Source: Firmicutes bacterium HGW-Firmicutes-15
GTDB lineage: Bacteria; Bacillota; Syntrophomonadia; Syntrophomonadales; Syntrophomonadaceae
Direction of reading: 5' to 3'
Assembly (NCBI GenBank): GCA_002840245.1
Contig: PHAA01000015.1
Coordinates: 28,808 to 92,807, forward strand
Length of the DNA stretch: 64,000 nucleotides
Shown here piece by piece: positions 13,897 to 64,000 of this stretch. Under the pieces are notes generated by a model, which was given only the letters and a program-made list of their open reading frames with translations, was not told the DNA's origin and did not search any database. Position 1 is the stretch's first letter, and the number at the start of each line of letters is the position of its first letter. Both the position numbers and the translations under genes were made by a program.

Positions 13897-14760
13897 TTAT
13901 TTACTGATACTGACCGCACCTTCATCTACGATTATCTTTTGTCCTTCCGGGCTTAGGACAAAGTCGATGAATGCTTTGGATAGGCCGGTCGGAGCACCTT
14001 TGGTTACATAGGTGAAAGGCCTTTGCAGCTTGTAGCTGCCTGCTTTTACATTCGCTTCAGTTGGGGCTGTTCCATCGATGTACACAGCTTTGACCTTCTG
14101 GCTTATACTCGATAAGGAAACATAGCCAATGGCATTATTATCCCCGGCCACAGTAGTTGCCACCGCTCCGGTGGAATTCTGAATAATTGCGGTCTTGATG
14201 ATATCCTTTTTGTTCATTACCAGGCTGGTGAAGGCTTCTCTGGTACCCGAACCATCTTCTCTGGATACAACAGTTATGAGAGAATCTGGACCGCCAACAT
14301 CTTTCCAATTCTTGACGTTGCCCAGATAAATGTTCATAATATCTTCTGTTTTTAATGCTTTTACAGTATTGGAGGGGTGAACCACAATCGCGATTCCATC
14401 TAAAGCAATGATGGTATCTACCAGACCCTTGGACTTCTCATCCGCTGTCAGGGCCCGCGAAACTGAGCCCAGACCGGCTGCTCCTGAAATAGCGGCCTCA
14501 ACCCCAACACTGGAACCTCCACCCTGGACGTTGATCTGTAAGCCTTTGTTGCTGGCCATTAACTTCTCGGCCAATACTTCACTAAATGGCTGCACCGATG
14601 TTGATCCCGCAATGGTCAAAGTGCCGGTTAGTCCGGACGTATTGTTCTTGGCGGTATCCGAGGCATCTTTTTTACTACACCCAGATACTAGTGCTGCTCC
14701 TAATAGCAATAACCCCACTAAAAGAAAACTGGTGATTTTTCTAACTCTACATGATTTCAT
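13897..14760 (-). CDS. pstS: Phosphate-binding lipoprotein PstS
   Basis: Lipobox LVSGC and PBP-like fold motifs (AGSTSVQP, GSGTREAF). An AAGGGAGGG RBS precedes the ATG at 14760. Confidence 0.9.
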   Translation of the reverse strand: MKSCRVRKITSFLLVGLLLLGAALVSGCSKKDASDTAKNNTSGLTGTLTIAGSTSVQPFSEVLAEKLMASNKGLQINVQGGGSSVGVEAAISGAAGLGSVSRALTADEKSKGLVDTIIALDGIAIVVHPSNTVKALKTEDIMNIYLGNVKNWKDVGGPDSLITVVSREDGSGTREAFTSLVMNKKDIIKTAIIQNSTGAVATTVAGDNNAIGYVSLSSISQKVKAVYIDGTAPTEANVKAGSYKLQRPFTYVTKGAPTGLSKAFIDFVLSPEGQKIIVDEGAVSISK

Positions 14761-14846
14761 TAAGTTAAACCCTCCCTTTACGCTAATATTCACATCTATA
14801 GAATACGCCGGGTTTGTAAAATATAAACATTCTGCATATTAAAAGG

Positions 14847-30565: not shown

Positions 30566-32191
30566 ATGAAGAAAAGCCTGTTATTTATACTAGCTTTGTT
30601 GCTGGCAATGATGTTATCAACTGGTATCGTCTTGGCTAAATCTGATAATGGTAATGGAAACAGCAACAAAGACAAAACACTAACTAACACCGTGAAGCTG
30701 CAAATCAATAATCAGCTAAGTGAGCAGGTACAATCGCGTAGCGAAGGAAAAAACACAGAAAAGATTCGTATTCAAGAAAGAGTGAAAAAATCAGTTCAGG
30801 AGGCATTTAAGGCCTATCGTATTGAAAAGACCAGCCAGAATATCAGCCCTTTTTCTGATATTAACCAGCACTGGGCAACCCGATCTATTACGGATATGGC
30901 TGCTGTAGGACTTTTCAAGGGCTATCCTGATGGCACATTTAAGCCCAACCAAGAGTTAACCCAGGCTGAAGCTATGGCCCTTGTGATGCGTATTTACGAG
31001 GAGGACCCAGCTAAGCCATCTACCGACGATGAGGCCGCGCTTAATGAAGAAGATAATTTGGCTGATGTACCAGCATGGGCACGTGAAGATGCTGGTAAAG
31101 CCGCTAAAAAAGGCATCATCAAGTTAAATCGTTTTCATTCAGGAGTGCAGGCATCTCGGGCCCAAACTGCGGTCATGATTGCGAAAGCACTGGGCTTGGA
31201 GCCCGTTGACACTAGTAATATGCCCTTCAAAGATGGATTATTGATTTCCAAAGAAGATCTCGGTTACATTATGGCCTTATATCAGGAGGGAATTCTGACC
31301 GGCAGCCCCAATGGTAATTTCAACCCCAATAGTGCTATTACCCGGGCAGAGATGGCCAGCATGCTGCAAAATCTGCTCAATAAGTCAGAGGTAGAATCGG
31401 TAAGCCTGCCGGAAACAGCAACAGTGGAACAGGGTAAAACCATAACTCTAGAAGCTATTGTTAAATACGCCGACGGTAGTACTGATAAACAAGTAAGCTG
31501 GTTAAGCAGTGACATTACTTTAGCAACTGTGGAAAATGGTGTGATTACGGCGGCAGCTGATAAGACCGGTACCGTCACTATTACCGCCACTGCCACCCGT
31601 GGTGAATCCAGCAAGTCGGCAAGTTGCACAGTGACGATTGTCGAACAACAGCAGGTGATTACGGGCATACTAAAAGCTACAGGCAATGTGGGCAGTAATG
31701 ATGGTAAAGTATATGAGGAATATATTCTAGAGGTAGATGCCTCACCAATCAGTTTAGCTCAGGATAAGGTGAAATCTATAACTTTGCAGAAAGAGGGCTC
31801 TGATCTTATCCAGCTTAGTGCCAATACGGACAGTAGTTTGTGGTTTAACGTACAACGTGAATCTGGAAAGTACACCTTAAGCGTGATAGACACCAACGAC
31901 ATAAGCTATGTGGCTACTCTTGATTGGACCGCTCCTACTTCGGTAACTGCTGTTGCCACAGGTAATAGTAGAGTACAAGATGGCAATAGCTATGTTGAAT
32001 ATAAGTTGGGTGATCTTGACCTGTCTAGCTTTACCTGCATGCATCAGATAAAGCCTGATGCTCAGGTGGTCGGGCTTACCGTCAGCACCGATACCAACCT
32101 GTGGTTCCAGACGAATAGTCAGATTTCCGGAGAACATATCTTCCTGATCCAGAAAAGCGATGTCTGGTATTCCAGCATAATTAGCATTTAA
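30566..32191 (+). CDS. SLH-domain cell-wall protein with a Big_2 Ig-like domain
   Basis: Signal peptide, SLH repeats (FSDINQHWATRSI...GYPDGTFKPNQELTQAEA) and Big_2 (KQVSWLSSDITLATVENGVITAAADKTGTVTITATA). Confidence 0.85.
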   Translation: MKKSLLFILALLLAMMLSTGIVLAKSDNGNGNSNKDKTLTNTVKLQINNQLSEQVQSRSEGKNTEKIRIQERVKKSVQEAFKAYRIEKTSQNISPFSDINQHWATRSITDMAAVGLFKGYPDGTFKPNQELTQAEAMALVMRIYEEDPAKPSTDDEAALNEEDNLADVPAWAREDAGKAAKKGIIKLNRFHSGVQASRAQTAVMIAKALGLEPVDTSNMPFKDGLLISKEDLGYIMALYQEGILTGSPNGNFNPNSAITRAEMASMLQNLLNKSEVESVSLPETATVEQGKTITLEAIVKYADGSTDKQVSWLSSDITLATVENGVITAAADKTGTVTITATATRGESSKSASCTVTIVEQQQVITGILKATGNVGSNDGKVYEEYILEVDASPISLAQDKVKSITLQKEGSDLIQLSANTDSSLWFNVQRESGKYTLSVIDTNDISYVATLDWTAPTSVTAVATGNSRVQDGNSYVEYKLGDLDLSSFTCMHQIKPDAQVVGLTVSTDTNLWFQTNSQISGEHIFLIQKSDVWYSSIISI

Positions 32192-32200
32192 TCTTTCTTC

Positions 32201-32285
32201 CAGGCTGATGACAGGAGTGAAGATCAAGACATGAGAAGGCCCGTTCAATTGAACGGGCCTTTTGATATAACGCTGAGCGACGTCC
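32201..32285 (+). repeat. Mosaic repeat, copy D (short, collapsed form), containing a perfect 22-nt palindrome terminator
   Basis: aggctgatgacaggagtgaagatcaagacatgagaa almost matches copy B at 49567-49602. The core has collapsed to ggcccgttcaattgaacgggcc (32238-32259) followed by tttt. It lies between convergent genes. Confidence 0.65.
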
Positions 32286-32312
32286 AGGGATGGGCCATTT
32301 CCATTTAGACTT

Positions 32313-42004: not shown

Positions 42005-45000
42005 TTAGGGCTGTGGTATTAATACGTCAGTCCAGGGAAATGTAGTAGGGCCACCTTGTTGGGTGGTGATTGTAAAAGTGTTAGCGTTAGTATCCATGCT
42101 AAAGCCAGTAATATAGCGACATCCAGTCTTTACCCACTGCTGTTTAAACGAATCGTCACTATTGAAAGCTACAATGTAAACAGGATAAGGGTAAGGATTA
42201 TTGGAATCATCATATAGGAAGTATTTGTACTTGCCCCAAGTAAATCCGTAGTTGGCACCGTACAAATTACTGCTGGGTGGAGGAGGCTGACTGCCTCCTC
42301 CCAGAACCGGATCACCAAGTACTACCGTGATGGTATAGACATTGATGGTTCCATCTTCCGCTTTGACAGCTAACTTATCGCCAAATAGCATGGTGTCCGT
42401 TGAGCTTTTGGCGGTGGCAGTGTCAAATCCGGTTTGATCATCTATGGTCGTTCCTGTTATGACTACCTTCCACGAGGCCTGGGCATGCTTGGTCAGATTC
42501 GCCAGGAAGGTTGTCACGGTGACATTGGTGTTAATCACAGTTGAAGCAGCGACTATGGTGTTGCCGGTATCATCTACTGTATAATGACTTGCTGCAGTAG
42601 TTACTGTAGCATCATTGCTTAGCCGCCTTATCGTCAAGTTGTAGTTGCCTTGAGTAGTTCCGTCCTGAGCTGTTACCTGGATGTAACTAAGGTTGTCTCC
42701 TACCACCAAGTTTATTAGTTGGGCTATCTCGGTAGTATAGCCGCTATCGCTATACAACTTCCAATTGGCATCAGGACTAACACTTACGTCTACAGTTAGG
42801 CTGCTTATGTTATTGGCTACGCTTGCGGTTATATTGTTCCCGCTTATGCTGCCTCCTGCCGGGCTGTTTACTCCTGTTACTACACAGGTTGATGAGGTTG
42901 CTCGGGTAACTATCAGGTTGTATAATCCTTGAGTAGTTCCATCCTGGGCTATTACCTTGATATAACTCTGGTTGCTCCCTACGATCAGATTCATCTGTTT
43001 ACTTGTTATCTCGACTAGATAGGCATCATCGCTGAACAGCTTCCAAGTGGCATCAGGGCTTACACTTACGTCTACGGTCAGGTTGCTGATGTTATTGGCT
43101 ACGCTTGCGGTTATATTGTTCCCGGTTATGCTGCCTCCCGCCGGACTAGTTACTCCTGTTACTACACATTCTGATGAGCCTGCTACTGCTGCTGTTGCTG
43201 CACTAGTTACAGTACCAGAGTAGCTGCCCGTACCTATTGCGGCTACTTTAATAAACTTAGTTGCATCGCCTGCAACTGGTGTGTATTTGTTTGTTGTTGC
43301 TCCCACAATGTCAGCATAGGTGCCAGATTCTGTAGCGCATATCATCCATTGATAACTTACTGTAGCATTTGCTGGGGTCAATGCACCGGCTGTTAATTCA
43401 GCGCCAACTTTTGCTGTACCGCTTGTAGTGGTAATAGCACTTACCCCTATAGTTGCATTGGTTTCACTATCATTACTATTAGGGGCTGGATCTGGCTGAA
43501 GGGCTTCCTGTGCCGCTTGGCTCAGTTCCTGCTGTAAATCTTGCAGTTGCTGCTGTAGGTCTTGTTTAACTTGTTCAGTAAGCTGTATGCCACTGGATTC
43601 CAAGCCCATTAGCACTACATCCAGCATGTTCTGTACTTGTTCTTCCTGTTTTTCTTCGACCGGTTGGTCAGGTATTTCCAATATCATTTCCACTAGCGGA
43701 GGTGGTGCAGCTTCCTTATTCTTATCTATTTGCAAGGCAGTATTAATCACCCAGCCCTGCACATTACCAAAGGCCTGTTTATCCTGCTCACTCATCTTGG
43801 TATCTGGTCCGGCGGTTCCTCCCTGGCCAATTCCGCTGCTCGTACCTCCAACCAGAGGCACTGCATCTCCAATCATGCCTCTTACATCAACATTTCCGGT
43901 AAGACAGCTTACATTACAAGTCCCGTCCTTATTTACGCTTACTAATATAAAGGTTCCTCTTACAGCAGCCACGCCCCAGGGCATGTCCACTGTCATTCTT
44001 ACCTTTTTTGTCTGTGCAGTCTGATACCAGGGGGCCTGGTTGTCAGCAATAAATTGCTTGCTGTCAAGTGATGCCAGCAAGGGGGAGTTAGCTCTAGCCT
44101 GCTGTTTTTTTGTGGATTCATGTTTAGTAGCCAGGGCTCCAAATACTGTCCCTTTTTTCAGGTCTATGTCGACATTCTCTACTGAGGTTCCGCTGAAACC
44201 GTCATTTTTTATGTAGGCTCTGCCGATAGATTCTTTTATGTTAATCTCGGTATTTTCTTTTATGAGGACACTACTGCCATCAGGATAGAATATGCTGGCA
44301 CTGGCGTTGGCTCCTGTTATTATGGTATCTCCCAAATATACGGAGCTATCATTCTGAAGTGGGGTAGTAGCTCCATTGCGTGTAAGTTTAATGTCTCCTT
44401 TAACGTCTTTTATGGTTCCTTTCAGGCTGACTGTATAGAGTCCAGGGTCCTTGGTCAACAGGGTTCCTAATGCCCGGGCGAGGCTTCCCCGCTTCATCAC
44501 TGCATCGGGGTATATTTGCTTGCCATCCGCAGACAAGCCTATCATCTCTGCTGCCAGGGCAACTGCCATTTCTCCTGCCGCCCAGTGGTTTTGCTCCATG
44601 TCATTAAGTACGGGAAGGGGGACTCGATCTTTTTGGGTTGATAATCTCATTATTAGGGCTATTCCCTGAGCCCGGGTTAGTTTATCTTCGGGTTTATAGG
44701 TTCCATCGGGGAATCCTTTTAGATAGCCGACTTTGGTTGCTGCTGCTATGTTGGCTGCTGCCCAGTGATCAGCTTGTACGTCGGGAAATCCGGTCTCGGT
44801 TACTGCGGGTGTCTCAAGTCCGGTAGCCTTTACTAGTACTACTGCGGCCTGAGCCCGGGTTAATCCTTCTTCAGGGTGAAAATTACCGTCCGGAAAACCG
44901 CTTAATATCTTCCGGTTGCTTAGGTAGTTTATAAAAACTGAGTTGTTGTTCGTGGATGTTACGTCTGGGAAAATCTGTTTTAGCTGCTCGGTTTTTGTTG

Positions 45001-49170: not shown

Positions 49171-49357
49171 GACAACATTCCTCCGCCTCGGTAATATTAG
49201 CCTAGGCTGTTATTCCTGAGTATATTTATATATTTTTATTATGTAAAGATAAATAAGTGCTATTGCTTAGCAGGGCATTCGTTGCCAGTTGCGAGGTTAT
49301 TTGCTGTTGCCTGTGATATAATAATTAATGGTAATAAGATCTAGGAGGATAAAAATT

Positions 49358-49522
49358 ATGGAAGAGAATAACAAGGGCTTGGAAATAATGCGCCAACTTA
49401 TTGAGAAGAAAAAGGAAAAGAGCGCATCCCAGGGTAGCATGAAGCGTGGCCCGGAAGATAGGTTCGGTACTAGTAGCCCCGGCAATAAGAAGAATAAAAA
49501 AGGTGGTCTTCCGCCCAAATAA
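49358..49522 (+). CDS. Small basic 54-aa protein (hypothetical)
   Basis: An AGGAGG RBS lies 8 nt before the ATG at 49358. The C-terminus is K/G-rich (GNKKNKKGGLPPK). Confidence 0.45.
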   Translation: MEENNKGLEIMRQLIEKKKEKSASQGSMKRGPEDRFGTSSPGNKKNKKGGLPPK

Positions 49523-49705
49523 ACGAAGTATTCGTTTCAGCTTGTCGACAAAGTCGGCAAGCTGCTAGGCTGATGACAGGAGTGAAGATTAAGGCATGAG
49601 AAAAGCTCGTGATTGAGGCGTACAAAGGTACGTTGATTGAGCGGGGTTTTTGAAATAACGCCGAGATTCGCTTTTGTCAACGGCCTGAAAACGAAGGATT
49701 CGTTT
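49521..49705 (+). repeat. Mosaic repeat, copy B: 151-nt core flanked by a duplicated 17-nt hairpin
   Basis: The flanks are aaacgaagtattcgttt (49521-49537) and aaacgaaggattcgttt (49689-49705). The core shares blocks with copies A, C (inverted) and D. Confidence 0.75.
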
Positions 49706-49817
49706 GGTGTTTTCTTAGACGTCACACAGGGGGAGGTTTCTACCGTCCCCTGTGTGTGCTAGTTTATAAAAAAGCTGAAAATATGGATATAGGCTAATGC
49801 TAAACTGAAAGGGAGTA

Positions 49818-51990
49818 GTGTCTCTGGAACAGATATTTAACCGTATATTTGCAGAAGCACATATATCAATCAAACAAATAAAGGCGGTAGCCCAATTATT
49901 AGATGATAGTAATACCGTACCGTTTATCGCTCGTTATCGTAAAGAGATGACCGGAGGTCTTGACGAAAACGAGCTTCGTTTAATTGAAGATAGGCTAAAA
50001 TTTCACCGTAACCTGGAGCAAAGGAAAGAAGAAGTAATCCGTCTTATAGATGGACAGGGCAAGCTCACCGATGATTTGGTGACGCAAATTAGCAAGGCTA
50101 CAAAAACTGTCGAGATCGATGACATCTATCTTCCATTTAGGCAGAAACGAAAAACTCGGGCATCGATGGCTCGTGATAAAGGACTTCAAGCTTTAGCGGA
50201 CTACCTGCTTAATTTCCCTTCCGAAGGGAATCTTGAGGAGGAAGCACTACGGTATCTCTCCGATCAGGTTCTAACAATTGAAGCCGCTTTGCAGGGAGCT
50301 AAGGACATCATTGCTGAGCAAGTGTCTGAGGACGCAACAGCCCGGCGTTGGATACGAGAATATAGCCGCAAACATGGAGTAATAGTGGTTAGCACCAAAG
50401 ATGTAAAGACTGAATCACCATACCGTATGTATTATGACTACCAGGAAGCAGTTGCTAAGATTCCTCCCCATAGAATATTAGCTATCAACCGGGGCGAAAG
50501 AGAGGAAATACTCAGGGTCTCGATCTCCGTTGGGGTAGAAAAAATTATCGACTTTTTAAATAAACTCTATGTGAAACCTGATATCACCGCTTCTTATGTC
50601 ACTGGAGCCATAGAAGACAGTTACTCCAGGCTCATTAAGCCATCTATTGAACGGGATCTGAGGAATGAACTAAGTGAAAAAGCGGAAGAACATGCTATAA
50701 ATATCTTTGCGAAAAACCTGGGTAATCTTCTCCTACAGCCTCCAATTAAAGGGCAGGTCATTCTAGGCCTGGATCCAGCTTACCGTACTGGCTGCAAATG
50801 GACTGTAGTGGATGAAACTGGAAAAATGCTGGAGGTGGGAGTGGTATACCCAACACCACCCCAAAAGAAAGTGGCTGAGGCAGAGGCGGTTCTTCTAAAA
50901 CGCATGCATTGTAGCAAATATGATTAAGAGTCAGAATCTACAAATTCCCTATACTATCGTTAGCGAAGCCGGTGCCAGTGTATATTCAGCATCCAAGCTA
51001 GCCGGCCTTGAATTTCCTAACCTGGATGTGTCGGAACGGAGCGCCATATCTATAGCCCGGCGGGTACAAGATCCTTTGGCAGAACTGGTGAAAATAGAGC
51101 CTAAGGCAATTGGTGTAGGACAGTATCAGCACGACCTTCCTCAGAAAAAATTGGACGATAACCTGACTGCAGTTGTAGAATCAGCTGTAAACCAAGTGGG
51201 TGTAGACCTTAACACCGCTTCAGCATCGCTGTTATCCTATGTTTCAGGGCTTTCTTCTACTGTGGCCAACAACATTGTAGAATACCGCGATATCAACGGC
51301 AAATTTAAGAACCGAAAACAGTTACTGAAGGTAACGAAGTTAGGCCCCAAGTCATTTCAGCAAGCTGCCGGGTTCCTGCGTATATATGATGGATGCAGCA
51401 TTATTGGCGACCACAAAGGAGCAACAGCAGCCTTAATTGTACCGCTTGCGGTACATCAGGAGTCCCCCAAGGGGGAAGTGCCCGGAGGGTTTAACCCGCT
51501 TGATGCCACAGCCATTCACCCGGAATCCTATGATCTGGCGATGAAGGTACTTGAAGTTACTGCAGCAATACCTGCGGAAATAGGGCAAGCTTCATTGGCA
51601 GCAAAACTAGAAGCGCTGGACATTAAAATCCTGGCTCCAAGCCTAGGGGCAGGGGAGCCAACCTTAAGAGATGTGATTGATTGTTTGCTAAAGCCACATC
51701 GTGATCCACGGGAGGATTTACCTCTGCCCATTTTCAGGACTGACGTACTAAGCATCGAAGACCTGGCTACAGGCATGTCCATGACTGGGACTGTAAGAAA
51801 CGTAGTTGACTTCGGAGCGTTTGTGGATATCGGGGTGAAGAGCGATGGATTAGTTCATCTGTCCGAGCTGGCTGACCGTTATATTCGTCATCCTATGGAA
51901 ATTGTCTCGGTTGGGGATGTGGTAACAGTACGGGTCTTGTCGATTGACCGGGAACGGGGAAAAGTATCCCTATCCATGAAATCTATCTAA
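49818..51990 (+). pseudogene. tex: Tex (S1-domain transcription accessory protein), split into two frames, with an internal deletion and an in-frame insertion
   Basis: The Tex_N motif TVPFIARYRKEMTGGLDE, the YqgF region LGLDPAYRTGCKWTVVDETG, then VSEAGASVYSAS, GVGQYQHD, HhH regions and the C-terminal S1 (GTVRNVVDFGAFVDIG) are all present. ORF 1 stops at 50927 and ORF 2 continues in the +1 frame from 50920. The canonical IAIGNGTASRE segment is missing. Confidence 0.8.
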
Positions 51991-51993
51991 GGG

Positions 51994-52039
51994 CAGACAG
52001 GGGCAGATAGAAGAACCGTCTTCTGTCTGCCCCTGTCTG
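51994..52039. terminator. 20-bp-stem hairpin between convergent tex and the DUF1540 gene
   Basis: cagacaggggcagatagaag-aaccgt-cttctgtctgcccctgtctg, with one mismatch (A opposite G). There is no clear U-tract. Confidence 0.6.
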
Positions 52040-52061
52040 AAAGAACCTGCCGAATACCAGT

Positions 52062-52235
52062 CTAGTCCTTCCGTCTATCATAACTCATGCATAGAGTCTC
52101 ATCTTCTGCTATGCCATTAGACGCGTTGGTACAGGCGCCCACCTGGATACTGGCAAGAGTACATTTACTGTCATTAAAATGCTTGCAGCTGCTGACATTA
52201 CAACCAATGGCCTGAATCCCATCTATTTCACTCAT
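52062..52235 (-). CDS. DUF1540-like small Cys-rich protein (57 aa), absent from the ORF track
   Basis: A GGGAGG RBS lies 7 nt before the ATG. My translation is MSEIDGIQAIGCNVSSCKHFNDSKCTLASIQVGACTNASNGIAEDETLCMSYDRRKD. It shows the C.V..C.....C.A..I.V pattern of DUF1540. Confidence 0.6.
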   Translation of the reverse strand: MSEIDGIQAIGCNVSSCKHFNDSKCTLASIQVGACTNASNGIAEDETLCMSYDRRKD

Positions 52236-52313
52236 TCAGAAACCTCCCTATATTTTTTATAGTTTGTGAGCTTTTCTGAAATTTATTCTGCCTGGTTTAT
52301 TTCATGACAGTCC

Positions 52314-52874
52314 CTAACTACCGGCAACTCCCCCGGAGACAATAAATGTCATCATATCAGCACTGTTAGAATCTAGGGGCTGAACATGACCGCTGGGAAA
52401 AATAAGCAGCTGTCCAGCAAAATTATAGGACTGAGGAACATAGACGGCCACATAATCATCCAGGCCGAAGTTGCTGAGGGATTCGCAGGTGATAAAACCC
52501 ATGACATGAGCGTGGCTCTCAGCGGAGAGTTTTACCAGTACAGGTTTGTTAAAGCTTTTCTTATCACCTACGAAGGCATTCAGTAAATCCTTCACTGATC
52601 CGTAGAGAAGCTTAACTAGAGGAAGTCGGTTGATCAGACTATCTAATAGTATAAAAAGCTTCTTGGTAAGGAAGTTGGATACCAGAAAACCTACCAGGAT
52701 CAACAGAAGAATGGTGGCAATAAAGCCCACACCTGGTACCACGCCCAGTCCAGGCAGGGGTATTTTTAAAAGCCCATCGATTTTTACAAATAGAATGTAG
52801 AAGATGTAAAGGGTCAGGACGATGGGGACCATGAAGAGTAATCCCCCAGAGAAATAATTGATTAGTTTTTTCAT
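52314..52874 (-). CDS. DUF502-family membrane protein
   Basis: Two N-terminal TM helices followed by the conserved ...LPLVKLLYGSVKDLLNAF...PVLV...G...GFIT core. Confidence 0.75.
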   Translation of the reverse strand: MKKLINYFSGGLLFMVPIVLTLYIFYILFVKIDGLLKIPLPGLGVVPGVGFIATILLLILVGFLVSNFLTKKLFILLDSLINRLPLVKLLYGSVKDLLNAFVGDKKSFNKPVLVKLSAESHAHVMGFITCESLSNFGLDDYVAVYVPQSYNFAGQLLIFPSGHVQPLDSNSADMMTFIVSGGVAGS

Positions 52875-52916
52875 GAAAAGCCTCCGTTCAATTTATTCGG
52901 TTTATAAAATTCAAAT

Positions 52917-52965
52917 AGATATTGTAGGATATAATTGCTTATACCAATTATATCCTACAATATCT
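52917..52965. promoter_or_regulatory. Perfect 21-bp inverted repeat with a 7-nt loop, in the divergent DUF502 / DEAD-box helicase intergenic region
   Basis: agatattgtaggatataattg-cttatac-caattatatcctacaatatct. Confidence 0.5.
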
Positions 52966-53086
52966 GTCGGGAGACAAAAAAGGAATGGCATGGGGACAAT
53001 ATTTTTTATCGATTCATGTATACAATTATTTGCCAATATGAAATAATAGATAAGTATGTTTGCAATAAGCTATAAAATTAGCAATA

Positions 53087-54565
53087 TTGGGTAAATATAA
53101 AATCAAGAAATCTAATAATAAAGGAGAAATTGAAGTATTGAAAACATTTGATGAACTGAACATTGAACCTCTTATCCTGCAGGCAATAAGCAATATGGGA
53201 TTTGAGGAACCCACTCCTATACAGGAAATGACCATCCCCATAGCCATGATGGGCCGCGACCTGATTGGAAGGGCCCAAACTGGAACAGGGAAAACGGCAG
53301 CCTATGGTATACCCCTAGTGGATAAATGCGAACTTGATTATGAGCAAATCCAGGGAATTGTGATTACACCCACTCGTGAGCTGGCTATGCAGGTAGCTGA
53401 AGAGCTCAATAAGATTGGGCAGTATAAAAGGATCCGGTCTATACCTATCTATGGTGGGCAGGATATAGATCGGCAGATAAGAGCACTAAAAAACAGACCC
53501 CATATTATTGTTGGGACCCCAGGCCGACTGATGGATCACATGCGCAGAAGAACCATCAAGCTGCAGCAGATAAAGATGGTGGTTCTGGATGAGGCTGATG
53601 AAATGCTCAATATGGGCTTTAAAGAAGATATTGAGGAAATACTTAAACAAGCTCCACAGGCACGGCAAAATCTACTTTTCTCGGCTACCATGCCTCCACA
53701 CATTCAGACTCTAGCTCGGGAGTTTATGAACAACCCGGAAATAATTCATATTGATCCTCGAGAGGTAACGGTAGCCAATACTGAACAACAATACATCGAA
53801 ACACCAGAGAATCAGAAATTGGATGTTTTATGCCGTTTGCTCGATATTCAGAATCCAGATCTGGCAATAGTATTTGGCCGCACCAAGCGCCGGGTGGATG
53901 AAATTGCTGAAGCTTTAAGCAAACGTGGGTATTCATCTGAGGGCATTCACGGTGATTTGAGCCAAAACATGCGGGATACGGTAATGCGCAAGTTTAAGAC
54001 CGGAACTATTGATATTCTAGTGGCAACCGATGTAGCCGCTCGAGGACTGGATATCACTGGAGTCACGCATATCTATAACTTTGATGTGCCCCAGGATCCG
54101 GAGGGTTATGTGCACCGCATTGGCAGAACTGGGCGTGCTGGAGAAACGGGCTTAGCTACCACTTTTGTTACTTCACGCGAAATAAACCATTTGAAATATA
54201 TAGAATCGCTTATCAAACATAAGATAACCCGTAAACCTATGCCTACTGCAAACGATGCTTTGGCTGGTTTACAGCGGGTAGTTGTTGATAGTCTACTTGG
54301 AACTGCAGCAAAGGAAGATATTGGGCAATATAAAGGACTAGCTGAAAGTTTATTAGAAGAACATGATTCGATTACCCTGCTAGCTGCAGCCCTGAAAATG
54401 TTGACCCGGGAACCTGTAGATAATCCATTGCAGATGTTGTCCAGTGCTCCCCCAATCCCATTAAAAAGTCTAGATAATTATAAAGATCCGAAAAAAGGCT
54501 TCCGGAGGAAGTCTAGCCCTCCGAGAAACTCTAGCGGCCCCAGAAATCCTAGAAAAACCTATTAG
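53087..54565 (+). CDS. DEAD-box ATP-dependent RNA helicase (CshA/DeaD-like)
   Basis: Q motif region FEEPTPIQ, Walker [13 protein letters not shown] (VLDEADEM), SAT and [10 protein letters not shown]. The C-terminal tail is basic. The true start may be the TTG at 53138, after an AAGGAG. Confidence 0.92.
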
Positions 54566-54573
54566 AGTAAAAG

Positions 54574-54815
54574 GACCCGCCGAATTATTCAGCGGGTCTC
54601 AGATCGTCAAAAAAGCCCAATAGCGGCGTTATTAATAAAAGCCCGTTCAATCAACGTACCTATGTACGCCTCAATCACGGGCTTTTATTAATGCCTTGCT
54701 CTTGCGACATCAATTGTACCGCACGCGGTACATCAGTAGTACCCGTAGGGTGAACTTTTTTGCTCGGCCTGACTTTATCGGCACCCTGTGACCCGCCGAA
54801 TTCATTTAGCGGGTC
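54574..54815 (-). repeat. Mosaic repeat, copy C (inverted relative to B): 191-nt core flanked by a duplicated 25/26-nt terminator hairpin
   Basis: The flanks are gacccgccgaattattcagcgggtc (54574-54598) and gacccgccgaattcatttagcgggtc (54790-54815). The reverse complement of the core aligns block by block with copy B. Confidence 0.75.
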
Positions 54816-54820
54816 TTTTT
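54790..54820 (+). terminator. Rho-independent terminator of the DEAD-box helicase gene (the distal copy of the duplicated hairpin)
   Basis: gacccgc-loop-gcgggtc followed by ttttt. The proximal copy at 54574-54598 has no T-run. Confidence 0.7.
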
Positions 54821-54999
54821 GTATGTTGTTTAATTAGTAGTCTGATCTAAAGAGTAGAGATTGTGGATTAACCAGTTATGACTCCGGAGTAGATAATATT
54901 GCGAGTGAAAGATAGAAGATAATGTCGTATAATAATTAAACATTTAATAATAATTTCCATCATTGATTTAAATAAAAAGGTTGGTTTGGGGGAAAGTCA

Positions 55000-56124
55000 A
55001 TGATTCGGCTTCCGGTAAGTGAGTTGTTTAGCGGTATGGTGGTTGGGCGGGCCATCATTGATGCTGAACAGCGGGTACTTCTATCTAGCGGGCAGGTTCT
55101 GACCGAATATTTCATAAAGCGGATTGGTGACCTGGGCGTTGCCGCGGTTTTTATAAATGACCAGTTGGGTTTGGAAGAGTCACCTCCACCGGTAAGTGAT
55201 TCTATAATCTTGCAAGCAACTCATACTCTAAAAAGCAGCTATCAAAAGTGTTTGAAAACTGGTCGCCTACAGATAGGAGCAGTAAAGAAGCAAGTGGACT
55301 GCATGATAGATGAGTTAATTACTCATGGTAATGCTATGGTAGGAATGGCTGATATTAAAAACTATGATGACTACACCTATCAGCATAGTGTTAATGTTTG
55401 TGTTCTGGCCCTCATGTTAGGCATTAGTAAGGGATACAACCGCGCTCAACTGCAAAAACTGGGGTTAGGTGCTTTGTTACACGATATCGGCAAGGTTACA
55501 ATCCCTATCGAGATTCTGAATAAGCCAAGTGTTTTGAATAGCGAAGAGAGAACAATAATCATGAGCCATACATGGGAAGGCTTTAATATGATTAAAAGCT
55601 CTGGACAGGTTTCACTGCTCTCGGCTCATGTTGCTTTGCAGCACCATGAACATATAGACGGAAATGGCTATCCTCGGAAGATAAGGGGAGATTCTATTCA
55701 TGAATTTGCTCAAATAACAACAGTTGCTGACATATACGATGCTCTGGTGTCGGATCGCCCCTACCGGACTGGCTTTAGCAACCATGAGGCTCTGGATATA
55801 ATTGAAAAGGGTGAAGGTACGCAAATATCAGCTTCCTTAGTCGAATTGCTTCGCGTCCATGTTAAAATATGCCCGGTAGGTACTGTGGTACTCCTTTCTA
55901 CAGGAGATACTGCGCTGGTTACAGGAGAAAACACTGCTGACCCCAAAAAACCACGGGTCAAATTGCTGTTTGACCAAAATCAAAAGGCCAATACGTTGCA
56001 TCATATGGTGGATCTGGCTTCATATGAGACGGTCTCCATTTGTAGAATGTTTTCGACTGAAGATGCAGCTCTTGTTATATCCCGCTATCTAGCTATCCGC
56101 AACCTGAAGACCTCTACCGCGTAA
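55000..56124 (+). CDS. HD-GYP domain c-di-GMP phosphodiesterase
   Basis: HSVNVCVLAL...LLHDIGKVTIP...HHEHIDGNGYPRK...DIYDALVSDRPYR. Confidence 0.85.
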   Translation: MIRLPVSELFSGMVVGRAIIDAEQRVLLSSGQVLTEYFIKRIGDLGVAAVFINDQLGLEESPPPVSDSIILQATHTLKSSYQKCLKTGRLQIGAVKKQVDCMIDELITHGNAMVGMADIKNYDDYTYQHSVNVCVLALMLGISKGYNRAQLQKLGLGALLHDIGKVTIPIEILNKPSVLNSEERTIIMSHTWEGFNMIKSSGQVSLLSAHVALQHHEHIDGNGYPRKIRGDSIHEFAQITTVADIYDALVSDRPYRTGFSNHEALDIIEKGEGTQISASLVELLRVHVKICPVGTVVLLSTGDTALVTGENTADPKKPRVKLLFDQNQKANTLHHMVDLASYETVSICRMFSTEDAALVISRYLAIRNLKTSTA

Positions 56125-56361
56125 ATTATTACTGGCATTAGCTGTCTAATAACCGAGGGGACATTTCAGGTTTCCCTCTAATAAGGCCCTGAGGGGTATT
56201 GTTGCATTCAAAGGGTTTGATAAGTATTTCAGACCGTGCTTGCTGAAAGGGGTAAATCATAATATTATCTAGTTATGAGGATCAAAATCATCATCATCGC
56301 TGGTGATAGGTGAGATATTTGATACTTATTTGTGGTTATTATAGTTGGAAAGGATTAATAA

Positions 56362-63410: not shown

Positions 63411-64000
63411 ATGATAAGGAGAAAAATGGGACAGCTGGGAGCGATAATGCTATTTATGTTCAGCATAACCTTAATCCTGGCCAATCCCGCCAAAGCTGCA
63501 GATGCGGTGATCAAGGCCGAATCCGTCCCAACACTGGTATCCCAGTTTAAAGATGTCCAATCCACTGATTCTAACGCCATATTTATTAGCTATTTAGCAG
63601 GAAAAGGCATTATAAATGGCTTTCCCGACGGAGGTTTTCATCCAGGTGAAGGACTAACCCGGGCCCAGGCCGCCGTAGTTTTGGTAAAGGCCGTCGGGCT
63701 AAACACCCCCACAGTAACTGAGACCGGATTTCCCGACGTACAAACTGATCACTGGGCAGCAGCCAACATAGCAGCGGCAACCAAAGCCGGCTACCTAAAG
63801 GGATTCCCCGACGGAACCTATAAACCAGAAGATAAAATAACTCGGGCTCAAGGAATAGCCCTAATAATGAGATTATCTGCCCAAAAGGACCGGACTCCCC
63901 TTCCCGTACTTAATGACATGGAGCAAAGCCACTGGGCGGCAGGAGAAATGGCAGTTGCTCTGGCAGCAGAAATGATAGGCTTGTCTGCGGATGGCAAGCA
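63411..64000 (+). CDS. SLH-domain surface protein, 3'-partial (runs off the window); paralog of 42005-45109
   Basis: Absent from the ORF track because no stop is reached. It starts MIRRKMGQLGAIMLFMFSITLILANPAKA, then has SLH repeats nearly identical to those of the 1034-aa protein (GFPDVQTDHWAAANIAAATKAGYLKGFPDGTYKPEDKITRAQGIALIMRL...). Confidence 0.85.
   Translation, partial: MIRRKMGQLGAIMLFMFSITLILANPAKAADAVIKAESVPTLVSQFKDVQSTDSNAIFISYLAGKGIINGFPDGGFHPGEGLTRAQAAVVLVKAVGLNTPTVTETGFPDVQTDHWAAANIAAATKAGYLKGFPDGTYKPEDKITRAQGIALIMRLSAQKDRTPLPVLNDMEQSHWAAGEMAVALAAEMIGLSADGK

Follow-up and report, generated by a model that had tools for sequence, protein, structure and literature searches.

The window, i.e. 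the whole stretch of 64,000 nucleotides that was analyzed, contains a DEAD-box RNA helicase gene behind which two copies of one terminator hairpin enclose a non-coding element. This element was designated copy C, and further copies (A, B and D) are found elsewhere in the window. The features of the helicase site are the following:

53087-54565, plus strand: DEAD-box RNA helicase gene (from the ORF list); homologues carry PF00270/PF00271 and are named DeaD/CshA; its terminator is the target
54574-54599, plus strand: proximal copy of the terminator hairpin, 26 nt, abutting the 3' end (CTG) of the element; T-tract lost; -18.1 kcal/mol
54600-54789, minus strand: copy C of the element (putative MITE), 190 nt, non-coding, with the ends CAGGGTGCCGATAAAG ... 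CTTTTTTGACGATCTG; covariance-model hit of 91.5 bits
54600-54632, minus strand: right end of copy C, ATAACGCCGCTATTGGGCTTTTTTGACGATCTG, including the right inverted repeat; found by pattern match, the most conserved block of the family
54637-54686, minus strand: apical hairpin P2 of copy C with the conserved symmetric internal loop GATTGA/GATTGA
54703-54750, minus strand: optional internal 'module 1' of copy C, 48 nt, missing from the canonical copies of 140-151 nt according to alignment comparison
54751-54789, minus strand: left end of copy C, with the outer inverted repeat CAGGGTGCCGATAAAG followed by an inner copy, CAGGCCGAGCAAAAAAG
54790-54816, plus strand: distal copy of the terminator hairpin, 27 nt; T-tract (54816-54820) retained; -13.1 kcal/mol

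A first-pass annotation had described two hairpins at 54574-54598 (gacccgccgaattattcagcgggtc) and 54790-54815 (gacccgccgaattcatttagcgggtc), and both are present at these positions. They share 92.6% identity over 27 nt (E = 9e-5, blastn within the window) and differ, as had been observed, by the insertion of a single c and a c/t substitution, both at loop positions. The interval of 191 nt given between them (54599-54789) is also correct; the element proper measures 190 nt when the closing A:T pair is assigned to the repeats. A U-tract had been claimed for the distal hairpin only, which agrees with the sequence: the distal hairpin is followed by TTTTTG and the proximal one joins the element end tcagatcg directly. 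The inner left repeat of copy C pairs with the right end, and no ORF of ≥ 50 AA was found in 54600-54789.

It follows for the helicase mRNA that it would have to read into copy C and end either within the element or at the distal hairpin. The distal hairpin is less stable than the proximal one by the energies given above, and a simple terminator scan misses it because its loop comprises 12 nt. Since the proximal hairpin lacks a U-tract and the distal one folds less well and was not called by the scan, termination may take place inside the element. The 3' end may be formed at P2 together with TTTTATT, at a small hairpin together with TTTTTTG (54740-54762) or at the distal hairpin.

Copies, anatomy and genomic location of the element

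The other copies in the window are:

49538-49687, plus strand: copy B, canonical element of 150 nt, with the repeats aaacgaagKattcgttt at 49521-49537 and 49689-49705; covariance model 139.5 bits
13620-13893, plus strand: copy D, 274 nt; two apical inserts, no flanking hairpins
32197-32290, plus strand: copy A, truncated and degenerate, just after ORF 30566-32191; covariance model 21 bits

The reverse complement of copy C had been reported to resemble copy B, and blastn aligned the two at 82.8% over 93 nt (E = 1.7e-20; 49585-49675 of the window). Copy B is flanked on both sides by its own repeat, so the second hairpin-element-hairpin arrangement with an unrelated hairpin, which had also been proposed, is real. 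Copy D begins 3 nt past the stop codon of the gene 13897-14793. The covariance model used to score copy C was built from other copies. A hammerhead ribozyme, to which a CTGATGA motif in copies A and B had pointed, was dropped, the GAAA/stem II arrangement being absent.

For the family scan, one genome per species was searched with the pattern ATAACGCNGNNATT..TTTT..ACGNNCTG from the conserved right end. The scan yielded 83 stretches, nearly all from Syntrophomonas or Syntrophomonadaceae genomes. Canonical copies have a length of 140-151 nt, start with CAGRSTGTCRAYAAAG and end with CTTTTTTGACGSYCTG. A further, inner copy of the left repeat comes after the outer one and pairs with the right end, and optional internal modules are present in some copies; module 1 of copy C was also found in L013, L017, L034 and L061, as well as inside the Tex gene of the window. 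The 27 copies flanked by a direct repeat (see below) are mostly located shortly behind the stop codon of a gene, on either side. With respect to the neighboring gene, the orientations recorded were sense (13), antisense (6) or between convergent genes (3), and an ordinary gene precedes every copy that was checked. Ten ORFs upstream of copies without flanking repeats were all housekeeping genes according to Pfam. Thus, the family is short and non-coding, has termini in common with an autonomous IS and occurs in many dispersed copies with target-site duplications, as is characteristic of MITEs.

The site of copy D is shared with L049 (7722-7870) at about 90% nucleotide identity. The L049 copy is a plain element of 150 nt and the copy in the window has gained two GGGGAC...GTCCCC inserts in the apical loop, which indicates that internal modules turn over faster than their host element.

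Duplication of the target hairpin

The 30 nt following each 3' end were compared with the upstream sequence and a direct repeat was accepted when starting within 2 nt of CTG. Evaluable for this test were 78 copies from the window and the 83 Syntrophomonadaceae loci. An abutting direct repeat was present for 28 of these 78 copies vs 18 of 1007 random positions. One of the 28 turned out to be a tandem copy of the element, which leaves 27 genuine cases. Their repeats, which measure 17-27 bp, are GC-rich hairpins that differ from case to case and mostly have an A...T closing pair. On the upstream side the repeat extends precisely up to CAG, and the element ends abut the feet of the hairpin. Beyond the tendency to A...T closure the targets have no primary sequence in common, and insertion was seen in both orientations. 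Of the copies, 51% have a stable hairpin after the 3' end, compared with 10% of random positions. About two thirds of the MITE copies, including copy D, have no recognizable duplication, and the duplication in L065 covers only part of the hairpin.

The two members of the 27 repeat pairs (window and L014-L083) differ at 20% of the loop positions and 3.6% of the stem positions (p = 2e-8). This excess in the loops could possibly be caused by selection for pairing acting on both copies, by mutation hot spots in loops or by error-prone repair across a folded template.

In L030 (7192-7421) and L039 (6831-7023), elements are found beside a homologous flank (about 77% identical). The hairpins of the two loci differ, the hairpin pair is identical within each genome and the element subtypes differ as judged by reading the sequences. 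The same terminator seems to have been hit independently in the two genomes. Two further combinations, L062/L070 and L033/window, were considered as orthologous pairs and rejected, since they do not represent the same site.

Empty site at the helicase locus

Helicase orthologues lacking the element were available in L084 (96% protein identity) and L087 (95%), and the comparison with an empty site suggested earlier could thereby be carried out. Both have a single hairpin with a T-tract after the stop codon, gacccgccgaatattcagcgggtc + tttttt. The target consequently shows what is expected of an intrinsic terminator, i.e. a GC-rich stem-loop and a T-tract directly after the stop codon. Neither tandem hairpins in the element-free relatives nor a longer local tandem duplication, each of which had been named as an observation speaking against insertion, was found at the locus.

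Directly after the distal hairpin, the window contains an extra segment of 1.4 kb (54816-56238), which is missing from L084 and L087 and includes an HD-domain (HD_5) gene at 55000-56124. In L084 and L087, the two closest helicase loci, the terminator is followed by a VTT-domain gene. Because of this extra segment, the empty-site comparison is not a clean difference by a single event. For copy B no empty site was obtained; L086 and L096 differ in the neighboring genes or in the terminator.

Autonomous elements with the same termini

To find a partner, metagenome contigs were scanned for the hairpin at the left terminus of copy B, excluding the MITE's own continuation. The scan retrieved an IS of 1537 bp at ≥ 10 sites, whose ends match the MITE termini CAGnnTGTCGACAAAG ... 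TTTTGTCAACGGYCTG. Its left end, CAGCTTGTCGACAAAGTCGACAAGCTG, is identical to the first 27 nt of copy B at 26 of 27 positions, and its right end is TTTTGTCAACAGTCTG compared with TTTTGTCAACGGCCTG in the MITE. Similarity is found only in the outermost nucleotides, 27 nt and about 16 nt, respectively, and the internal sequences are unrelated. Two ORFs of the IS match NF033551 (NCBIfam, IS1182 family; 1e-61 and 1.4e-80) as well as Pfam DUF772 and DDE_Tnp_1_6, and the reading frame extends as far as the final base of the IS with no internal stop codon.

The protein of this IS is identical to one from Geobacillus thermodenitrificans, in whose finished genome (CP020030) the IS lies between perfect 36-bp hairpin copies. 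A relative in the finished genome of Caloramator sp. E03 (CP040093) has a duplication of 24 bp, which is a complete hairpin, and another in the finished genome of Brevibacillus sp. TJ4 (CP185865) has a duplication of 17 bp comprising the loop and the 3' arm of a longer hairpin. In all three genomes the duplications abut the CAG and CTG ends; the elements have the termini CAGnnTGnnGACAAAG / CAGnnnGTnGACAAAA, with a terminal hairpin at the left end. The targets are hairpins without sequence specificity, as reported for some IS1182 elements, and the repeats measure 17-36 bp (17-27 bp for the MITE). In contrast to the MITE, these elements are autonomous with a transposase in two ORFs or in a single ORF, and they belong to other genera of Bacillota. 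From the shared termini and hairpin duplications, we infer that duplication of the whole hairpin is a property of this IS1182 clade and that the MITE is its non-autonomous relative.

Tblastn with the transposases of ISKpn6, ISKpn31, ISClbu1 and Geobacillus detected no IS1182-family transposase in the window or across Syntrophomonadaceae loci totalling about 0.7 Mb, nor did Pfam among ten ORFs of the window and the ten upstream ORFs. Within the Syntrophomonadaceae loci, searches for paired inverted repeats 0.8-3 kb apart and for multi-copy ORF clusters gave no partner IS. Comparison with the ends of ISKpn6 (IS1182) and ISKpn31 (ISAs1) in pKpQIL revealed nothing of use apart from CAGGG, and no IS1182 copy was present in the first 50 kb of pBtoxis. 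Two contigs in which the IS lies between two unlike hairpins (L101 and L113) were judged unreliable as evidence, because the IS copies are 100% identical and most contigs break inside the IS. In the finished genome the duplication is perfect.

The terminal palindrome of 27 nt (CAG..GTCGAAAAAGTCGAC..CTG) was also observed on its own beside terminators in the metagenome contigs L118, L106, L124, L126 and L129. In L129 it is part of a mini-element of 85 nt with a hairpin duplication, and in L118 (142-1247) it is followed by an ORF which, inspected by eye, may resemble an IS30-type transposase.

Proposed insertion mechanism

Copy C is interpreted as a non-autonomous inverted-repeat element (MITE) which uses the ends of an IS1182-family IS and has inserted into a terminator hairpin; we assign a probability of roughly 0.85 to this reading. 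That the duplication is made by the insertion, as had been argued from copies B and C, is now supported by the family-wide repeats, the empty sites and the autonomous IS1182-family elements in finished genomes.

The insertion would proceed as follows. A DDE transposase supplied in trans would bind the CAG...CTG ends of the element. The target would be recognized by its shape, i.e. a palindrome extruded as hairpin or cruciform. In a cruciform the two feet, separated by 17-36 bp in linear DNA, would be adjacent. Each strand would then be joined, at the 5' foot of its stem-loop, to a 3'-OH end of the element, whereupon the hairpin of each strand would be left as a single-stranded gap. Filling of these gaps by repair synthesis would give hairpin-element-hairpin. 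The main argument for recognition by shape is that repeats of 17-36 bp whose length tracks that of the hairpin cannot arise from a constant stagger in linear DNA.

Several observations count against this account. No IS1182-family transposase was detected in the Syntrophomonadaceae DNA searched, the similarity to the Geobacillus IS is restricted to the ends, and about two thirds of the MITE copies show no recognizable duplication. Published members of the IS1182 family delete the hairpin, and the ISClbu1 sites (see below), the Brevibacillus insertion and L065 fit imperfectly. Furthermore, a mechanism acting purely on double-stranded DNA by a DDE enzyme does not predict the strand-specific fold described in the following.

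Strand-specific fold of the element

The long hairpin of the element was evaluated in 22 copies. Standard pairs occupy 93% of the cells vs 85% in shuffles, and none of 500 shuffles reached the observed value; sliding the partners by 1 to 3 columns reduced standard pairs to about 40%. Compensatory changes were found at 20 of 46 pairs. Two internal loops are nearly invariant, namely AAGAGCAAGGC / ATAACGCAGCTATT and the symmetric GATTGA/GATTGA. Within the fold, G·T was counted 97 times vs 7 times for A·C, and from this excess it is concluded that only the sense strand keeps the fold.

The fold may be required in a single-stranded donor form, or the insert may have a function at the RNA level. It is conceivable, if unlikely, that the fold is part of transposition itself, with this IS1182 clade acting on folded single strands or cruciforms at the donor as well as at the target. 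In that case, 'hairpin feet' bounded by CAG...CTG would be recognized and the MITE would be mobile only while one particular strand folds. This would amount to a structure-to-structure DDE transposition with a target programmable by shape, in the course of which tandem terminators would be created, and optional modules would give in-frame gene insertions.

The same observations could be taken to mean that the element is in the first place a gene for a structured RNA or a 3'-UTR element acting in mRNA stabilization, processing or termination, its mobility being secondary or its fold being needed in a single-stranded (RNA/ssDNA) transposition intermediate. Pairing above that of shuffles, 20 compensatory pairs, a fold of the sense strand only and near-invariant internal loops would all suit such an RNA, as would the bias of 13:6 toward the sense of the upstream gene and the retention of the orthologous copy D across about 10% nucleotide divergence. 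We nevertheless consider this explanation rather improbable. Rfam 15 gave no match at gathering scores for the whole window and none of relevance at E up to 5 for 49300-55000, both orientations occur, and terminal repeats together with target duplications are of the IS1182-family transposon type. A structured RNA would moreover add a function to the transposon account and leave the duplicated hairpins unexplained.

Comparison with known mobile elements

Two members of the IS1182 family, IS1272 and TnSha1, insert into terminator hairpins in either orientation and without a consensus in the target sequence. They are often found immediately downstream of genes, and their transposase ORF has no stop codon inside the IS (PMC4923244; PMC5678879). 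Targeting of palindromes by some IS1182 members is reported via PMC4923244. The variant IS1272L contains a tandem duplication of the left end including the left repeat (PMC5678879; PMC4923244). The MITE is alike in targeting hairpins without consensus, in both orientations and downstream of genes; its left end is doubled as in IS1272L, and the internal stop codon is missing from the Geobacillus partner IS as from IS1272. The difference lies in the fate of the target. IS1272 and TnSha1 remove the stem-loop wholly or partly without a target duplication (PMC4923244; PMC5678879), whereas it is duplicated here, and the MITE is in addition non-coding. Replacement of the stem-loop as by IS1272 does not apply to the MITE, because copy C and 26 other copies each have a hairpin on either side. 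In a published cruciform model, the whole stem-loop becomes duplicated if the joining takes place at the 5' feet (pathway b in Fig 13 of PMC5678879). For ISClbu1 (IS1182 family), three independent sites in Clostridium butyricum megaplasmids (L093-L095) had no target duplication and the T-tract follows directly after the IS, which suggests that ISClbu1 may replace terminator hairpins as IS1272 does. The hairpins flanking ISClbu1 had been considered as target duplications; this was rejected, since the three sites show that they belong to the IS.

The duplications made by the Correia, ERIC, RUP and BOX families are short and of fixed length, e.g. TA, and to our knowledge duplication of a whole terminator hairpin has not been reported for any of them. 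These families are bacterial MITEs with long hairpins (review PMC10969869). They resemble the family described here in being short and non-coding, with terminal inverted repeats, many intergenic copies and the possibility of a long hairpin in the transcript. No hairpin-duplicating MITE was found in the literature searched.

The strand-specific hairpin fold also brings to mind movement by an HUH enzyme (IS200/IS605-type PATE, REP/RAYT), and hairpin-insert-hairpin is formally like the repeat-spacer-repeat (discussed in PMC4940900) that would result from integration by a Cas1-type integrase (CRISPR adaptation, casposons), which likewise leaves a copy of a palindromic unit on either side of the inserted DNA via staggered attack at the two borders of that unit. 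Either origin is very improbable. IS200/IS605 and REP elements have neither target duplications nor terminal inverted repeats of this kind, both of which are present here, and no conserved flanking tetranucleotide was found. The unit duplicated by Cas1, an enzyme of another family, is fixed in length and bound to a specific locus, whereas the length here tracks each hairpin (17-36 bp) and no Cas1 takes part. The partner with identical termini encodes an IS1182-family DDE transposase.

Finally, an origin of the hairpin pair by local tandem duplication or replication slippage, with the element merely lying within the interval, is hardly credible and already contradicted by the data: palindromes are slippage-prone and another indel of 1.4 kb relative to the relatives lies at the same place, but the repeat borders are the CAG/CTG termini in 27 independent loci with unrelated hairpins, the same borders are seen for autonomous ISs in three finished genomes, and element-free relatives have one hairpin.

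Significance

If copy C is such a MITE, an element between two copies of a terminator would be the footprint of shape-directed transposition. According to the literature searched, targeting of hairpins by the IS1182 family and deletion of the hairpin are already published, and its duplication has been offered only as a model. New are the 27 MITE insertions and three IS insertions with duplication of a whole hairpin, and the strand-specific fold. The set of insertions places the strand joining at A...T-closed stem feet, with terminators as natural landing pads. An insertion turns one terminator into a hairpin without a U-tract, a long structured insert and a second terminator, and 3'-end formation of the affected genes should change. 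In annotation, the element is to be treated as a Syntrophomonadaceae repeat family, not to be confused with small RNA genes or CRISPR-like repeats.

Further observations in the window

The Tex-like ORF 50920-51990 contains an in-frame insertion of about 93 nt (31 AA) within 51387-51492, between FLRIY and NPLDATAIHPESY, which the L085 and L088 orthologues lack. Module 1 (43 nt, 84% identity with copy C) is found in the reverse complement of this insertion. The module therefore seems to be independently mobile and to be tolerated in a coding sequence without breaking the frame. Tex is a single ORF of 711 AA in L085 and is split into two overlapping ORFs in the window (49818-50927 and 50920-51990). 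At the split, about 95 nt of L085 (1108-1202) are opposed to only about 33 nt in the window (50887-50919), a mismatch in length which points either to a deletion that shifts the frame or to an error in the assembly.

After the Tex stop codon, a hairpin at 51994-52040 (CAGACAGGGGCAGA...TCTGCCCCTGTCTG) starts with CAGAC and ends with GTCTG, similar to the element ends, and scores 23.7 bits with the covariance model of the element. It is probably only a terminator. An inverted repeat of 388 nt connects 44517-44904 and 63613-64000, the arms being 88% complementary, and the surroundings of both arms match an SLH-domain ORF in L086.
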